DNA of 64,000 nucleotides from Escherichia coli (GCF_013122565.1 NZ_CP053258.1); one strand, 5' to 3'; positions 3,217 through 59,023 are shown, counted from the first letter of the stretch. Notes: generated from the sequence alone by a model not told the origin. Program-made: numbers and translations.

Positions 3217-4617
3217 ATGCCACATTCCTACGATTACGATGCCATAGTAATAGGTTCCGGCCCCGGCGGCGAAGGCGCTGCAATGGGCCTGGTTAAGCAA
3301 GGTGCGCGCGTCGCAGTTATCGAGCGTTATCAAAATGTTGGCGGCGGTTGCACCCACTGGGGCACCATCCCGTCGAAAGCTCTCCGTCACGCCGTCAGCC
3401 GCATTATAGAATTCAATCAAAACCCACTATACAGCGACCATTCCCGACTGCTCCGCTCTTCTTTTGCCGATATCCTTAACCATGCCGATAACGTGATTAA
3501 TCAACAAACGCGCATGCGTCAGGGATTTTACGAACGTAATCACTGTGAAATATTGCAGGGGAACGCTCGCTTTGTTGACGAGCATACGTTGGCGCTGGAT
3601 TGCCCGGACGGCAGCGTTGAAACACTAACCGCTGAAAAATTTGTTATTGCCTGCGGCTCTCGTCCATATCATCCAACAGATGTTGATTTCACCCATCCAC
3701 GCATTTACGACAGCGACTCAATTCTCAGCATGCACCACGAACCGCGCCATGTACTTATCTATGGTGCTGGAGTGATCGGCTGTGAATATGCGTCGATCTT
3801 CCGCGGTATGGATGTAAAAGTGGATCTGATCAACACCCGCGATCGCCTGCTGGCATTTCTCGATCAAGAGATGTCAGATTCTCTCTCCTATCACTTCTGG
3901 AACAGTGGCGTAGTGATTCGTCACAACGAAGAGTACGAGAAGATCGAAGGCTGTGACGACGGTGTGATCATGCATCTGAAGTCGGGTAAAAAACTGAAAG
4001 CTGACTGCCTGCTCTATGCCAACGGTCGCACCGGTAATACTGATTCGCTGGCGTTACAGAACATTGGGCTGGAAACTGACAGTCGCGGACAGCTGAAGGT
4101 CAACAGCATGTATCAGACCGCACAGCCGCACGTTTACGCGGTGGGCGACGTGATTGGTTATCCGAGCCTGGCATCAGCGGCCTATGACCAGGGGCGCATT
4201 GCCGCGCAGGCGCTGGTGAAAGGTGAAGCCACCGCACATCTGATTGAAGATATCCCTACCGGCATTTACACCATCCCGGAAATCAGCTCTGTGGGCAAAA
4301 CCGAACAGCAGCTGACCGCGATGAAAGTGCCATATGAAGTGGGCCGCGCCCAGTTCAAACATCTGGCACGTGCACAAATCGTCGGCATGAACGTGGGCAC
4401 GCTGAAAATTTTGTTCCATCGGGAAACAAAAGAGATTCTGGGCATTCACTGCTTTGGCGAGCGCGCTGCCGAAATTATTCATATCGGTCAGGCGATTATG
4501 GAACAGAAAGGTGGCGGCAACACTATTGAGTACTTCGTCAACACCACCTTTAACTACCCGACGATGGCGGAAGCCTATCGGGTAGCTGCGTTAAACGGTT
4601 TAAACCGCCTGTTTTAA
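3217..4617 (+). CDS. sthA: Soluble pyridine nucleotide transhydrogenase
   Basis: 466-aa ORF with FAD-binding GSGPGG motif ([16 protein letters not shown]) and the expected length. Confidence 0.95.
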
Positions 4618-11051: not shown

Positions 11052-12056
11052 TTAAATAAGAGACTGCGTTTCCGCATAGCCGAAACGAATATTGGCGCAC
11101 TGTACCGCTTGTGCCGCCGCGCCTTTCAGTAAGTTGTCTTCGGTCGCCACAATAATCAGATGCTCACCCTGAACGGCAAACCCGATATCGCAAAATGGCA
11201 GCCCAACGACATTTTTCAGCGCCGGAACGCCTTTGTCATACAGACGCACCAGCGGTTTATGGGCATACGCCTGCTGTAATGCCTGCGCCACTTGCGCCTG
11301 GCTCACGCCCGGTTTCAGGCGGCAGGTAATGGTTTCGAGAATGCCGCGCGGGAAATTGCCCAGATGCGGGGTGAAGATAACGTCAGCACCGAGGTGTGTG
11401 GCGATCTCTGGTTGATGGCGATGGGTAAAGACGCCATACGGTTGCAGGCTAACTTCACAAAAACTATTTGAAATCGCTGCCTTACGTCCTGCACCGCTCA
11501 CGCCGCTGGTGGCGTTGATCACTGGCCACTGATTGAGGTCAAGAAGATCGGCATCAATCAACGGTTTCAGCGCCAACTGTGCTGCCGTCGGATAACAGCC
11601 TGGTACCGCAATCAAATTCGCTTCTTTTAATTTATTACCGCACCACTCCGCCAGACCGTAGGCTGCCTGTTCCAGCAGTTCCGGGTATTGATGGGTAAAG
11701 CCGTAATATTTTTCATAGAAGGTGGCGTCGTTAACACGAAACGCGCCGGAAAGGTCGAACACCACGCAGCCCGCTTCAAGAAACTGCGGCGCTAAATCGT
11801 GGCTAACTTCATGGGCAGTGGCGAGAAACACCACGTCCACCCCTGGGCTAAACTCGCTGATATCCGACATCGGCTGCAACGGCAGATCAACGATGCCTTT
11901 TAGCTGCGGATGCAAATCGGAGATTAACTTTCCCGCATCATTGCTTTGCGCTGAAACAGTCAAAGCGGTTATGTTCATATGCGGATGGCGATTTACATAG
12001 GTCACTAGCTCTGCGCCAGCGTAGCCGCTGGCACCCACAATCAGCGTATTCAACAT
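11052..12056 (-). CDS. argC: N-acetyl-gamma-glutamyl-phosphate reductase
   Basis: 334-aa [46 protein letters not shown]... Confidence 0.95.
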
Positions 12057-12149
12057 CGGGGCTATTCACCTTCTTATGTCTGGTTGCCAGGTTAAACGTA
12101 AAACATTCACCTTACGGCTGGTGGGTTTTATTACGCTCAACGTTAGTGT

Positions 12150-12195
12150 ATTTTTATTCATAAATAATGCATGAATATTGATACTATCATGACCA
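12150..12195. promoter_or_regulatory. ARG boxes (ArgR operator) in the divergent argE / argCBH promoter region
   Basis: Sequence cataaataatgcatgaatattgatactatcatg between argC and argE resembles tandem ARG boxes (TnTGAATwwwwATTCAnw). Confidence 0.65.
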
Positions 12196-12209
12196 GAGGT
12201 GTGTCAACA

Positions 12210-13361
12210 ATGAAAAACAAATTACCGCCATTTATCGAGATTTACCGTGCTCTGATTGCCACACCTTCAATAAGCGCCACGGAAGAGGCACTCGATCAAA
12301 GCAATGCAGATTTAATCACTCTGCTGGCGGACTGGTTTAAAGATTTAGGCTTCAATGTGGAAGTGCAGCCTGTGCCAGGAACTCGCAACAAATTTAATAT
12401 GCTGGCCAGTTGCGGACAGGGGGCTGGCGGCTTGTTGCTGGCGGGGCATACCGATACGGTGCCATTTGATGACGGTCGCTGGACGCGCGATCCGTTTACA
12501 CTGACGGAGCATGACGGCAAGCTTTACGGCTTAGGCACCGCCGACATGAAAGGCTTTTTTGCGTTTATCCTCGATGCGCTACGCGATGTCGACGTTACGA
12601 AGCTTGCAAAACCGCTCTACATTCTGGCGACTGCCGATGAAGAAACCAGTATGGCCGGAGCGCGTTATTTTGCCGAAACTACCGCCCTGCGCCCGGATTG
12701 CGCCATCATTGGCGAACCGACGTCACTACAACCGGTACGCGCACATAAAGGTCATATCTCTAACGCCATCCGTATTCAGGGCCAGTCGGGGCACTCCAGC
12801 GATCCAGCACGCGGAGTTAACGCTATCGAACTAATGCACGACGCCATCGGGCATATTTTGCAATTGCGCGATAACCTGAAAGAACGTTATCACTACGAAG
12901 CGTTTACCGTGCCATACCCTACGCTCAACCTCGGGCATATTCACGGTGGCGACGCTTCTAACCGTATTTGCGCTTGCTGTGAGTTGCATATGGATATTCG
13001 TCCGCTGCCTGGCATGACACTCAATGAACTTAATGGTTTGCTCAACGATGCATTGGCTCCGGTGAGCGAACGCTGGCCGGGTCGTCTGACGGTCGACGAG
13101 CTGCATCCGCCGATCCCTGGCTATGAATGCCCACCGAATCATCAACTGGTTGAAGTGGTTGAGAAATTGCTCGGAGCAAAAACCGAAGTGGTGAATTACT
13201 GTACCGAAGCGCCGTTTATTCAAACGTTATGCCCGACGCTGGTTCTGGGGCCTGGCTCAATTAATCAGGCTCATCAGCCTGATGAATATCTGGAAACACG
13301 GTTTATCAAGCCCACCCGCGAACTGATAACCCAGGTAATTCACCATTTTTGCTGGCATTAA
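12210..13361 (+). CDS. argE: Acetylornithine deacetylase
   Basis: Canonical 383-aa protein starting [35 protein letters not shown]; the ORF-track entry has a 13-aa extension. Confidence 0.95.
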
Positions 13362-19280: not shown

Positions 19281-19608
19281 GATGGGTTTGCTGCGGCGCA
19301 GAAAGCACTTTGCGCACCGCGCTCATTACCCGCTGCGGCTCACGCAGGAATGCGTAGATGCTGCATTGCACATAGCGGCAATGTTCAAATCGCTCGGCAC
19401 CGGCAAGCTCGATATCCGTAATTAACAGCGCAACATCCGCCCGGCGGATATCCTCGTCCGCTAAACGATTCTCCGTTCCCAGCGCGCCCTGAGTTTCAAT
19501 GCTGATGACCCACTTCTCTAACTGGCACAACTTTTCCAGCCGTTCCGCCGCCATATAAGTATGCGCCACGCCGCTTACGCAGGCGGTTACTGCCACCAGG
19601 TATGCCAT
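19267..19608 (-). CDS. frwD: Fructose-like PTS EIIB component FrwD
   Basis: Canonical 113-aa protein MAYLVAVTACVSGVAHTYMAAERLEKLCQ...; paralogous to frwB at 22802..23122. Confidence 0.9.
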   Translation of the reverse strand: MAYLVAVTACVSGVAHTYMAAERLEKLCQLEKWVISIETQGALGTENRLADEDIRRADVALLITDIELAGAERFEHCRYVQCSIYAFLREPQRVMSAVRKVLSAPQQTHLILE

Positions 19609-22801: not shown

Positions 22802-23122
22802 TTAAGCGGTTTGCGCCAGGTGAGCTTCAATTTTGCTCATAATGGCGTCAGCGCGTTTTACCGCGTCGCTGATGTTGACGCGCACAATGGTCTTGCCAGC
22901 AAAACGCTCTTCAAACTTGATGCCGATATCTTTGGTCAGAATCACCATATCGGCGCTCGCCACATCTTCCGCAGTCAGTTCGTTTTCCAGACCAATCGAG
23001 CCCTGGGTTTCTACTTTCACTTCCCAGCCTTTCGCTTTCGCGGCACTTTCCAGCGCCTCTGCCGCCATATAAGTATGGGCAACACCAGATGGACATGCGG
23101 TTACTGCAATAATTTTCGTCAT
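22802..23122 (-). CDS. frwB: Fructose-like PTS EIIB component FrwB
   Basis: 106-aa ORF MTKIIAVTACPSGVAHTYMAAEALESAAKAKGWEVKVETQG... Confidence 0.92.
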   Translation of the reverse strand: MTKIIAVTACPSGVAHTYMAAEALESAAKAKGWEVKVETQGSIGLENELTAEDVASADMVILTKDIGIKFEERFAGKTIVRVNISDAVKRADAIMSKIEAHLAQTA

Positions 23123-48307: not shown

Positions 48308-48324
48308 AGCGGAAAAGAGCGGCG

Positions 48325-48440
48325 CGGAGTGGAATCGCCTGATGCGCTACGCTTATCAGGCCTACGTCATATTGCAATTTATTGAATTTGCACGAACTTG
48401 TAGGCCGGATAAGGCGTTCACGCCGCATCCGGCATAAACA
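48325..48440. repeat. REP/BIME element downstream of metJ
   Basis: gcctgatgcgctacgcttatcaggcctacg ... gtaggccggataaggcgttcacgccgcatccggcat. Confidence 0.75.
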
Positions 48441-48490
48441 ACGAGCACGTTGTCTGCGACCCACCGCTTTTTATACATGGACGTTTAACG

Positions 48491-49099
48491 ATGAAATACA
48501 GGCTACTGATCCTCAGTCTGCTGGTTTCTGTGCCTGCATTTGCCTGGCAACCACAAACCGGCGACATCATCTTTCAGATCTCTCGCTCATCGCAAAGTAA
48601 AGCGATCCAACTGGCGACCCATTCCGATTACAGCCACACCGGTATGCTGGTGATACGCAACAAAAAGCCCTACGTTTTTGAAGCGGTCGGCCCGGTGAAA
48701 TACACCCCGCTCAAGCAGTGGATCGCCCATGGTGAAAAGGGCAAATACGTTGTTCGCCGCGTTGAAGGCGGACTGAGTGTTGAACAACAGCAAAAACTGG
48801 CGCAAACGGCAAAACGTTATCTCGGCAAACCGTACGATTTCAGCTTCTCATGGAGCGACGATCGCCAGTACTGTTCGGAAGTGGTGTGGAAGGTTTACCA
48901 GAATGCGCTGGGAATGCGCGTGGGCGAACAGCAAAAGTTGAAAGAGTTCGACCTTAGTAACCCGCTGGTTCAGGCAAAGCTCAAAGAACGCTACGGCAAA
49001 AATATTCCGCTTGAGGAAACGGTGGTCTCACCACAAGCCGTTTTCGATGCGCCACAACTCACCACGGTTGCCAAAGAGTGGCCGCTGTTTTCCTGGTGA
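48491..49099 (+). CDS. yiiX: YiiX, putative lipid-binding hydrolase (DUF830, permuted papain-like fold)
   Basis: 202-aa ORF with a signal peptide (MKYRLLILSLLVSVPAFAWQP) at the conserved position. Confidence 0.9.
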   Translation: MKYRLLILSLLVSVPAFAWQPQTGDIIFQISRSSQSKAIQLATHSDYSHTGMLVIRNKKPYVFEAVGPVKYTPLKQWIAHGEKGKYVVRRVEGGLSVEQQQKLAQTAKRYLGKPYDFSFSWSDDRQYCSEVVWKVYQNALGMRVGEQQKLKEFDLSNPLVQAKLKERYGKNIPLEETVVSPQAVFDAPQLTTVAKEWPLFSW

Positions 49100-49159: not shown

Positions 49160-49411
<252 letters not shown>

Positions 49412-49415
49412 CTAA

Positions 49416-51773
<2,358 letters not shown>

Positions 51774-51928
51774 ACCGCTCACGATGCGAGGCGGATCGAA
51801 AAATTCAATATTCATCACACTTTTCATGAAAATTCTGTAACCGTTTTCACGCGCTATCTGCTAAAAATGTTGCCGATGTGAAGTAAACATGGATGTAGTA
51901 CGCCTGACGTGCCAGGCGAGGAGTGAGT

Positions 51929-54032: not shown

Positions 54033-54097
54033 TTGCATTATGCCCCGTACTTTTGTACGGGGTTTGTACTCTGTATTCGTAACCAAGGGGTCAGCTC

Positions 54098-54628
54098 GTG
54101 ACAACTATAGTAAGCGTACGCCGTAACGGCCATGTGGTCATCGCTGGTGATGGTCAGGCCACGTTGGGCAATACCGTAATGAAAGGCAACGTGAAAAAGG
54201 TCCGCCGTCTGTACAACGACAAAGTCATCGCGGGCTTTGCGGGCGGTACTGCGGATGCTTTTACGCTGTTCGAACTGTTTGAACGTAAACTGGAAATGCA
54301 TCAGGGCCATCTGGTCAAAGCCGCCGTTGAGCTGGCAAAAGACTGGCGTACCGATCGCATGCTGCGCAAACTTGAAGCACTGCTGGCAGTCGCGGATGAA
54401 ACCGCTTCGCTTATCATCACCGGTAACGGTGACGTGGTGCAGCCAGAAAACGATCTTATTGCTATCGGCTCCGGCGGCCCTTACGCCCAGGCTGCGGCGC
54501 GCGCACTGTTAGAAAATACTGAACTGAGTGCTCGTGAAATTGCTGAAAAGGCGTTGGATATTGCAGGCGATATTTGCATCTATACCAACCATTTCCACAC
54601 CATCGAAGAATTAAGCTACAAAGCGTAA
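54098..54628 (+). CDS. hslV: ATP-dependent protease subunit HslV
   Basis: 176-aa [53 protein letters not shown]... Confidence 0.97.
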
Positions 54629-57556: not shown

Positions 57557-57583
57557 AAAAGGGGAATTAAATTCCCCTTTTTT
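57557..57583 (+). terminator. Intrinsic terminator after rraA
   Basis: aaaaggggaat-taa-attccccttttttat: perfect stem followed by a T-run. Confidence 0.65.
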
Positions 57584-57587
57584 ATAC

Positions 57588-58274
57588 ATGGACGTATTCA
57601 TGCAGAATATTATTCTTTTATTTATATATTTATCACTTATAGTCGTTAACCATTTCCGCTACAAATTTCTTTTATCTGGCAACGCGGGTGAAATGATTTT
57701 ATATTTTGCTAACGTATTTTTTAACCCACTTGCCGTATCATTTATTATCGCCACAATCATCTGTATAACGATAAAAAAAAGAAGCAGCCGTAGCTTTATT
57801 CGCGGCACTTGTTGGTTAATGGGATTATTTCTTATCTATAGCAGCTATACGGTGTGGGAACGACACAGCACATGGGATTATACTTTCCCGGGGCCAGGTA
57901 TCACCGTCACGGTTCCGAGCAAACAGTGGGTTACCAATATAGTAGAACAAGGCCCCACCCTGGTGACTCGGGATGCCCATGCTATTTTAGCTATTGTTGC
58001 CTTCTCACAAAATGAACTCGGTGTGCATTCAATCGAGGAGCTTACCGCGACTCAAAACGGAACTGCAGAAATGCATATTTGTGATGTTCAGGGATTTACC
58101 TGTGTTTATCAGGAAGAACTGCAAACAATGAGTGATGGTAAAACAAGACATGCTATTTTCATGACTCTACTGGATAACACTAATTTGATACAACTGGTCG
58201 CAGCCATCGACCAAGATTATTTGGACGAATATCAAGAAGAAGTAATGAAAATGATGCTTTCTGCCCGTCAATGA
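57588..58274 (+). CDS. Hypothetical membrane-anchored protein, paralog 1 (three predicted N-terminal TM segments plus a roughly 140-aa probably periplasmic domain); accessory
   Basis: AT-rich ORF of 224 to 228 aa; the start is either ATG 57588 (MDVFMQNI) or ATG 57600 (MQNIILLF). N-terminal hydrophobic segments with K/R-rich loops are followed by a soluble domain with a conserved Cys pair (C-x7-C, HICDVQGFTCVYQ). No recognisable family. Confidence 0.6.
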   Translation: MDVFMQNIILLFIYLSLIVVNHFRYKFLLSGNAGEMILYFANVFFNPLAVSFIIATIICITIKKRSSRSFIRGTCWLMGLFLIYSSYTVWERHSTWDYTFPGPGITVTVPSKQWVTNIVEQGPTLVTRDAHAILAIVAFSQNELGVHSIEELTATQNGTAEMHICDVQGFTCVYQEELQTMSDGKTRHAIFMTLLDNTNLIQLVAAIDQDYLDEYQEEVMKMMLSARQ

Positions 58275-58306
58275 TCTGATGTGCATATTAATAATAAGGG
58301 ATTGAT

Positions 58307-59023
58307 ATGAGATACGTTATCTTATTAATACTATGGTTAATAACTGCTTTTCTTAGTCATCTTCAGCACAGCAACCTACTATCTGGAGATCCTGGCATGG
58401 TTGGCGAGTATATCGGTTCAGTATTTCTGGGGCCGTTATTACTTCCCGTGCTTGTGTCAGGTATTCTGTGCGCATTCACTAAAAAAACGCGTAACTGCGC
58501 CAGTTTTACTCGCGGGTGCTGCTGGGTATTGGGAGTCCTGCTTTTATCCAACGTCGGCAATACGTTTCGTATGTTCACCCCGTGGCAATATACGTTTGAG
58601 AATGCCGCTATTTCCGTGACTGTCCCGAACCGACACTGGAATACGGTTTCCATTCGTACAGATAAAACCATTGATATAAGAAGTGAAGATAATAGCGTCT
58701 TTATTTCTGCTTTCCGCCTGCCCGCAGGACGTAGCGCCGATGACTCGCTGGAAGAGTTAAAGAAGATGCAGCGAGACAATCTCAAGGATCAATACAATGA
58801 AGAAACCTTCCAGTTTCATGATTGTCATGCCAAACATTTCACCTGTAAGTATCAGGATGTGTTGATAAATTTTGATGGTCAGCAGAAGAGAACCATCAGT
58901 GTTTATCTTGAAGACACCCCCAGAGCTGTGGGGATCATTGCATTAATGGAGCCAGATACGGTAGATAAATATCGCCAACAGGCGATGGAGATTATGTTGT
59001 CTGCTAAAAATGCAGTGAAGTAA
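58307..59023 (+). CDS. Hypothetical membrane-anchored protein, paralog 2; accessory
   Basis: 238-aa ORF MRYVILLILWLITAFLSHLQHSNLLSGDPGMVGEYIGSVF... Shares with paralog 1 the motifs LLSG-x-G, F-x-RG-x-CW, W-x-YTF, I(S/T)VTVP, FTC-x-YQ and M-x-MLSA (about 30% identity by eye). Confidence 0.6.
   Translation: MRYVILLILWLITAFLSHLQHSNLLSGDPGMVGEYIGSVFLGPLLLPVLVSGILCAFTKKTRNCASFTRGCCWVLGVLLLSNVGNTFRMFTPWQYTFENAAISVTVPNRHWNTVSIRTDKTIDIRSEDNSVFISAFRLPAGRSADDSLEELKKMQRDNLKDQYNEETFQFHDCHAKHFTCKYQDVLINFDGQQKRTISVYLEDTPRAVGIIALMEPDTVDKYRQQAMEIMLSAKNAVK

Follow-up and report, generated by a model that had tools for sequence, protein, structure and literature searches.

Introduction

The closest described counterparts of the element analyzed here are the sites at which CsrA (Csr/Rsm), a global translational regulator, overlaps the Shine-Dalgarno sequences of repressed mRNAs such as glgC, cstA, pgaA and hcnA. 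The SELEX consensus for CsrA is RUACARGGAUGU; ACA and GGA were 100% conserved among the ligands, GU was present in all ligands but one, and the AC and GU residues close a six-base loop (PMC7652899). Structural work treats two of the positions as N, which gives (A/U)CANGGANG(U/A) (PMC7652899). Many characterised CsrA targets have two or more sites, and the targets recovered by CLIP-seq are enriched 4.4-fold for inner-membrane proteins. Hairpins of the same type also occur, as arrays, in the CsrB, CsrC and RsmX-Y-Z sponge RNAs.

In this study we analyzed a stretch of 64,000 nucleotides of an Escherichia coli chromosome (hereafter, the window) with the gene order metJ-yiiX-rpmE-priA-cytR-ftsN-hslVU-menA-rraA-[two-gene island]-zapB-glpF. 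The leaders of yiiX and of the first island gene share a short exact sequence that resembles the CsrA sites of repressed mRNAs in several respects. Both have the same GGA and the same ACA/GU spacing, both overlap the sole Shine-Dalgarno-like element 7-9 nt from the start codon, and a short hexaloop closed by AC and GU may be able to form here too. The downstream proteins are predicted envelope proteins. Unlike many characterised targets, each leader offers one obvious accessible site, and, in contrast to the repressed mRNAs, yiiX shows no significant effect of csrA mutation. Here the CsrA-type site comes straight after a terminator U-tail, so that the mRNA would have to be a read-through product.

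Three other systems bear comparison. The hairpin type, AUAC-AUGGAC-GUAU, is that of the sponge RNAs, but in E. coli each copy stands alone in an mRNA leader. Like REP/BIME elements, the motif is short, intergenic and located beside terminators, and the yiiX copy has a true REP cluster directly on its upstream side; unlike them, it has no REP palindrome, is single-copy in each Escherichia or Superficieibacter representative where it was found, and its two copies in the window share nothing past 17 nt. With MetJ operators, which consist of tandem AGACGTCT boxes, the site has in common a GGACGT and an adjacent metJ, but its match to the two-box consensus (8/16) is at background level and orthologues do not conserve it as a met box.

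Results

An exact repeat precedes two start codons

The original prediction, made from the sequence alone, described an exact 16-nt match between the leaders of yiiX and island gene 1. The match is real and one base longer: TTTTTATACATGGACGT, 17 nt, is found at 48468-48484 and again at 57579-57595 of the window, on the + strand in both cases. The predicted distances to the start codons were likewise correct, with one copy ending 6 nt before the yiiX ATG (48491) and the other 4 nt before the ATG at 57600, which is the annotated start of island gene 1 in O157:H7. The 17-mer is composed of a U5 terminator tail and the 12-mer AUACAUGGACGU. No similarity flanks the two copies beyond these 17 nt, and a search of the window that allowed up to 2 mismatches returned no further copy.

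Such a match at equivalent positions had been regarded as too unlikely to arise by chance in 64 kb. When the window was shuffled 200 times with dinucleotides preserved, some direct 16-mer repeat arose in 43.5% of the shuffles (mean 0.75) and some direct 17-mer repeat in 13% (mean 0.195), and the real window contains two more 16-mer pairs without evident meaning. For a bare 16-mer repeat the claim is overstated; the improbable element is the location of the copies just upstream of two start codons, not the exact repeat alone. A second exact 17-mer repeat, GCCGCCATATAAGTATG, is present at 19547-19563 and 23061-23077. Its flanks are alike too, and it therefore looks like coding sequence of paralogous genes, not like a regulatory motif.

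A genome-wide search had been proposed along with the prediction, and we scanned about 100,000 species genomes for the exact 16-mer. The 53 loci recovered include the region upstream of yiiX in three Escherichia representatives and the region upstream of the island homologue in Superficieibacter. Each of these four genomes contains the 16-mer once, and so it is not dispersed in them; most of the matches outside the enterobacteria look isolated and chance-like. The end of a mobile element, or a dispersed repeat of another kind, was rejected on the basis of this single copy per enterobacterial representative and the lack of flanking similarity between the window copies. Four loci in Labilibaculum (Bacteroidota; L004, L005, L006, L011) carry the 16-mer inside a different multi-copy repeat (...ctccctgtgtgtagaaagTTTTATACATGGACGTttcat...), which appears unrelated to the enterobacterial sites.

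A separate observation concerns marine Gammaproteobacteria (Marinobacterium, Thalassotalea, Shewanella atlantica and Algicola), in which the 16-mer begins a 52-nt tandem unit, TTTATACATGGACGTATTTATCCTGCGATCACATGGAGGTGAATGAGTAGGG. Arrays of this unit were found at L013 (8095-8369) and also at L003, L020, L023, L024, L025 and L031. They begin immediately past an intrinsic terminator, stop short of the following gene, and reach 5.3 copies at 96% identity, with two ACAUGGANGU sites per unit; the L013 array contains 8 ACAUGGANGU sites in 270 nt. Their fold is ambiguous, no promoter of their own is evident between the terminator and the next gene, and an Rfam search of the arrays gave no match to a Csr/Rsm or other family. 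In appearance they resemble series of CsrA/RsmA-type hairpins, and they could be CsrA/RsmA-binding arrays or a REP-like element.

Organization of the yiiX and island leaders

The features of the yiiX leader are as follows, in window coordinates.

48468..48472, + strand: U-tract, remnant of the metJ intrinsic terminator (sequence; REP-less strains)
48473..48484, + strand: AUACAUGGACGU, CsrA-consensus site over the yiiX Shine-Dalgarno-like GGA at 48479-48481 (consensus match, conservation, CLIP-seq)
48491..49099, + strand: yiiX coding sequence, YiiX family permuted papain-like enzyme, 202 aa (Pfam PF05708)

The GGA is separated from the yiiX ATG by 9 nt and is the sole Shine-Dalgarno-like element of the leader, which is predicted to be essentially unstructured (fold z -0.25). 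In the window, as in K-12, the metJ terminator hairpin is split by a REP/BIME insertion of ~130 nt in its loop (48316-48467), so that only the 3' half of the terminator precedes the yiiX copy, and a terminator scan of the window detected none at the yiiX leader. The insertion is missing from B2 and some other strains, and in REP-less strains an intact hairpin, agcggc...gccgcTTTTTT, lies directly before the motif. The statement that both copies follow a terminator T-run is accordingly accurate for the island copy and, for yiiX, only in REP-less strains, the hairpin being interrupted in the window. Rfam models ES036 and naRNA4 match the REP region upstream of the yiiX copy; no Rfam family covers either copy, even at E<=1, the only matches being to these REP-derived sRNA models upstream. 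Elsewhere in the window, the ClpQY (hslVU) promoter element, a known cis-regulatory RNA (54043-54100), and the L31 ribosomal-protein leader upstream of rpmE (49379-49431, - strand) were detected as expected.

Downstream of rraA the arrangement is comparable.

57557..57583, + strand: rraA intrinsic terminator, AAAAGGGGAAUU-AAA-UUCCCC stem-loop and U6 tail (terminator scan, 57561-57576 plus T-run)
57584..57597, + strand: AUACAUGGACGUAU, predicted CsrA-consensus site over the GGA at 57590-57592 of island gene 1 (consensus, conservation)
57600..58274, + strand: island gene 1, 224 aa, orphan predicted membrane protein
58307..59023, + strand: island gene 2, 238 aa, paralog of gene 1

The island, which consists of these two paralogous genes, starts directly at the rraA stop codon and stands in place of the short rraA-zapB spacer seen in K-12-type strains. 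The same junction is present in 660 of 5,426 complete E. coli genomes (about 12%), O157:H7 included, and the leader is absent from K-12. The rraA terminator found here (fold -17.6 kcal/mol, z -3.8) is confined to island-carrying strains, and K-12-type strains have a different one. In island gene 1 the spacer between GGA and ATG is 7 nt and the GGA is again the sole Shine-Dalgarno-like element; island gene 2 is preceded by an AAGGGA Shine-Dalgarno sequence of the ordinary type and does not carry the motif. The island leader could form a 4-bp AUAC/GUAU stem with AUGGAC exposed in a hexaloop, but the minimum-energy fold pairs CAUGGA with UUCAUG instead (-4.4 kcal/mol, z -1.9).

A sigma-70 promoter scan of the + strand found nothing at either leader, which leaves the TATACA within the motif unsupported as a -10 element, and that candidate was dropped. 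With no room for a promoter and none detected, yiiX and the island genes are most likely expressed by read-through from metJ or rraA.

The N-terminus of YiiX is signal-peptide-like in sequence, island protein 1 has three hydrophobic N-terminal segments, and envelope targeting of both is plausible as judged from these features. Both island proteins (~230 aa) have the three N-terminal segments, and two cysteines are invariant in their C-terminal domain. They have no match in Pfam (precomputed), NCBIfam or PADLOC, and a literature search by the presumed O157 locus tags of the genes returned nothing relevant. A profile search of 1.84 billion representative proteins yielded just 32 relatives; the family is therefore small and orphan.

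The shared 12-mer matches the CsrA consensus

The 12-mer AUACAUGGACGU agrees with RUACARGGAUGU at 10/12 positions, and both mismatches fall at positions treated as N. When these are left free, ACA-N-GGA-N-GU (ACANGGANGU) is matched at 10/10 positions by the yiiX and island sites alike. Their AUGGA fits the motif [A/C]UGGA obtained by CLIP-seq in Salmonella (PMC5207318). In both leaders the GGA overlaps the Shine-Dalgarno position. On these grounds we predict from sequence that CsrA binds the island leader. A hairpin with GGA in the hexaloop is pairable in that leader, whereas the predicted minimum-energy folds favour other pairing or no structure, and no clear second, accessible GGA is available for a CsrA dimer, the nearest lying in terminator or REP stems. 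No paper found in our literature search contains the 12-mer.

The window contains 3 occurrences of ACANGGANGT versus 1.4 expected. Each of the three lies on the sense strand and no more than about 45 nt ahead of a start codon. Two are the leaders already described; the third is the following.

51887..51896, + strand: ACAUGGAUGU, third ACANGGANGU site, in the cytR leader (internal positive control)

This site lies ~35 nt upstream of the cytR start.

The core is conserved across yiiX leaders

Alignment of metJ-yiiX regions across strains, another check proposed with the prediction, showed that the motif is nearly fixed within Escherichia and that only its core persists outside the genus. B2 strains have C for T just before ATACAT, and in E. 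coli strain MB06171 the ATG of the motif is changed to AAG while the GGA is kept (ACAAGGACGU; ACAAGGACGT). We compared yiiX leaders from Escherichia, Citrobacter (two species), Klebsiella (two species), Phytobacter and Leminorella. Up to the start codon, those outside Escherichia read as follows.

Citrobacter enshiensis: AACAAGGACGUUUACCGAUG
Klebsiella aerogenes: AGCAAGGACGUUGACGUG
C. freundii: AACAAGGAUUGU...
K. spallanzanii: AUAACAAGGAUGUUAUGCCAUG
Phytobacter: GAACAAGGAUGUAAAUCAUG
Leminorella: ACACAGGACGUUGACGAUAUG

Across these leaders (A/G)CA-(A/U)-GGA-(C/U)-(G/U)U is kept about 7-10 nt before the start. In most yiiX orthologues, from seven genera, the core ACA(A/U)GGA(C/U)GU alone is retained, the exceptions to ACA and GU being K. 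aerogenes (GCA) and C. freundii (GGAUUGU). The T-run and the AU of the motif are specific to Escherichia and gone in the other genera, whose leaders read AACAAGGA(C/U)GU. The invariant GGA is present in 9/9 yiiX leaders and 4/4 island leaders examined. As the T-run and AT are lost in other genera and the core is kept, what selection maintains over the ribosome-binding site is therefore ACA-(A/U)-GGA-(C/U)-GU and not the whole 17-mer. Part of this conservation, at GGA and the bases next to it, could be due simply to Shine-Dalgarno function.

The island leader is more conserved than its proteins

Gene 1 directly follows rraA in four lineages: the window and O157, Superficieibacter (L028), L066 and L067. 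All four (4/4) have a terminator followed by TTTTTTATA(C/T)A(T/A)GGA(C/T)GTAT, 2 nt and the ATG. Identity of the leader is 19-22/22 across the four lineages, against 33-63% for the proteins and 84-89% for rraA at the nucleotide level. The leader varies mainly at the two N positions, and in addition one C is replaced by a U, with a U-G pair retained; leaders of the other lineages read ATACAAGGATGT or ATATATGGATGT, and that of L066, AUACAAGGAUGU, matches the SELEX consensus at 12/12. The AUAC/GUAU stem can pair in 4/4 lineages, a C-G pair having become U-G once, and the rraA terminator stem differs in sequence yet is pairable in Superficieibacter, L066 and L067. With just four distinct island leaders, a covariation test of the small hairpin is uninformative. 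The motif is missing from the paralog-2 genes and from distant family members (L072, L073/L074), and the latter indicate that it is specific to the rraA-linked branch.

Several observations on the island locus were made along the way. The island pair occurs after rraA in several enterobacterial genera, at 57600-59023 in the window, 11289-12754 (- strand) in L028 and 2001-3500 in L066. In L066 an IS200-like Y1 transposase gene (3761-4072) lies just downstream of the pair, before the zapB-side flank. L070 and L071 represent a variant locus with rraA, a Lipoprotein_9 gene on the opposite strand and a single paralog. Both carry a decayed leader-like sequence, cctttttttatacaaaactgtatt (~1890-1915 in L070), in which GGA is replaced by AAC; it is located ~100 nt upstream of the P0136 gene and is not start-adjacent.

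Published data place CsrA at the yiiX start

Potts et al. (2017) mapped CsrA in K-12 by CLIP-seq, and their peak_403, assigned to yiiX/metJ, spans 4127842-4128117 (logFC 2.11, padj 2.2e-16; PMC5694010 Supplementary Data 1). The peak maximum is at 4127895, 1 nt upstream of the yiiX start codon (4127894), and the peak sequence includes CUUUUUAUACAUGGACGUUUAACUAUG (PMC5694010). These data show in vivo binding of CsrA for yiiX. The peak is 276 nt wide, with other GGA triplets inside it, and is continuous from the metJ 3' end into yiiX (PMC5694010), a continuity that fits a read-through transcript. When the csrA mutant was compared with wild type, the log2 changes for yiiX were +0.15 in RPF, +0.38 in translation efficiency and -0.46 in RNA, none of them significant (PMC5694010 Supplementary Data 2). 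Because no significant change was seen in the mutant, a regulatory effect of CsrA on yiiX is at most putative. We found no paper whose text pairs yiiX with CsrA, and the text of Potts et al. does not discuss yiiX.

The cytR leader site lies inside peak_402, assigned to cytR (PMC5694010). In earlier studies cytR also co-purified with CsrA and was predicted as a target. Thus both of the ACANGGANGT sites that the window shares with K-12 (yiiX and cytR, 2/2) are in CLIP peaks. The same layout is found in other CLIP peaks, for example that of yjfL, UUACAAGGACGUUUACAAUG (PMC5694010).

Discussion

The interpretation that we consider probable is that the repeat represents two independent CsrA-type sites over ribosome-binding sites, each placed after a terminator U-tail and identical to the other by chance. 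The first part of the 17-mer is the U-tail of the intrinsic terminator of the upstream gene, metJ or rraA. Directly after it comes a near-consensus CsrA site, with a GGA that is also the only Shine-Dalgarno-like element of the downstream gene. By occupying this site, CsrA would cover the ribosome-binding site and lower translation, as it does at its other targets, and we infer translational repression of this kind at yiiX or the island gene. The two copies would not be homologous; both would lie near the same optimum and have the same bases at the two N positions. Since identity requires agreement at only one R, two N and the T-run, such a pair is unremarkable among the many CsrA sites in the genome. 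The suggestion of a shared regulatory or ribosome-binding element is therefore supported in kind, given a GGA within a CsrA-consensus site and the CLIP maximum at yiiX, and the regulatory effect is a prediction.

How much of the resemblance could be pure coincidence, with a weak GGA Shine-Dalgarno sequence following a T-run in both genes and functionless identity around it? The shuffled windows, in which repeats of 16 or 17 nt were far from rare, the fact that 5/17 positions belong to a T-run of the sort common after terminators, and the lack of a significant expression change for yiiX in the csrA mutant are all compatible with such an explanation. We nevertheless think it unlikely, because it does not account for the retention of ACA and GU, beyond GGA, in yiiX leaders across genera, for an island leader conserved at 19-22/22 while protein identity drops to 33%, for the CsrA peak maximum at the yiiX start, or for the position of the window's ACANGGANGT sites, 3/3 of which lie shortly before a start codon. 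An origin by common descent, in which gene conversion or illegitimate recombination copied one leader from the other, or capture of the island cassette left a scar, would explain an exact identity of 17 nt at equivalent positions and an island boundary directly at the rraA stop codon. It is very unlikely, however, considering that neither side of the 17-mer is similar, that the Escherichia form of the yiiX leader can be explained from the AACAAGGACGU form seen in Citrobacter, and that the orthologous leaders differ exactly where the two E. coli copies agree. Superficieibacter and two other lineages, whose proteins have diverged strongly, have the island leader at the same rraA-downstream site, which implies that this leader is old and part of the cassette locus. 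The capture footprint offered in the original prediction is contradicted by the end of similarity at 17 nt, by the separate orthologous series to which each leader belongs, and by the single copy per genome.

Some features of the leaders might instead point to a cis element that is independent of CsrA, either a hairpin that hides the Shine-Dalgarno sequence and AUG or a target of another factor, such as an sRNA or RNase E acting at the AU-rich tract. The minimum-energy fold of the island leader does pair the Shine-Dalgarno sequence with the start codon (CAUGGA/UUCAUG), longer hairpins surround the GGA in L067 and in the K. spallanzanii yiiX leader, and the CsrA consensus by itself leaves the conserved TTTTTTATA part unaccounted for. 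But the hairpins are weak (as noted for the island fold) and differ between lineages, the yiiX leader is without structure, no Rfam family lies at the site, and the variable positions coincide with the N positions of CsrA; we regard this alternative as improbable. Use of the motif ATG as a real start is more doubtful still. In E. coli and Superficieibacter this ATG shares the reading frame of the island gene, which would give an N-terminus of MDVFMQ..., and before yiiX it opens ATG GAC GTT TAA, a three-codon leader ORF (MDV-stop) that ends 2 nt before the yiiX ATG and could be coupled to it. Against this stand its loss in MB06171 (AAG), in all non-Escherichia yiiX leaders and in island lineage L066, the T-run that directly precedes it in place of any Shine-Dalgarno sequence, and the RefSeq annotation, which uses the downstream ATG. 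The lack of conservation across orthologous leaders led us to reject the mini-ORF and alternative start, to which we attach very little probability. Finally, the weak likeness to met boxes mentioned in the original prediction would make the site a MetJ operator downstream of metJ. The site adjoins metJ and GGACGTTT agrees with AGACGTCT at 6/8 positions, but two tandem boxes reach at best 8/16 at both leaders, a score that 2% of window positions equal or exceed and that falls short of the 11-12/16 at the top 14 positions. In addition, the CGT is not conserved, orthologous leaders reading GGATGT or GGATTG, and the island gene, located after rraA, has no methionine link, so that an operator at this site is hardly credible.

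Returning to the reading as two independent CsrA-type sites, an eye-catching exact repeat is explained by ordinary biology, the combination of a terminator tail with a consensus site for a global translational regulator, and our understanding of Csr regulation is unchanged. A bolder proposal, which we advance as speculation and think rather unlikely, is that terminator, U-tail and GGA-hairpin leader form a conserved, self-contained gate that combines read-through with CsrA control and is kept before an orphan membrane-protein cassette downstream of rraA across genera, even as protein identity fell to 33%, and that the marine 52-nt tandem arrays, built from the same hairpin (UUUAUACAUGGACGUAU), are an unrecognised CsrA/RsmA-titrating RNA or CsrA-binding repeat. 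At the level of individual genes, the analysis brings out of supplementary data an undiscussed contact of CsrA at yiiX, a gene of unknown function, and ACA-N-GGA-N-GU near a start codon picked CLIP-supported sites in both of the cases in the window that could be checked (2/2). It also leads to the prediction that a strain-specific island of two genes is connected to the Csr network by a leader that is more conserved than the proteins it precedes.
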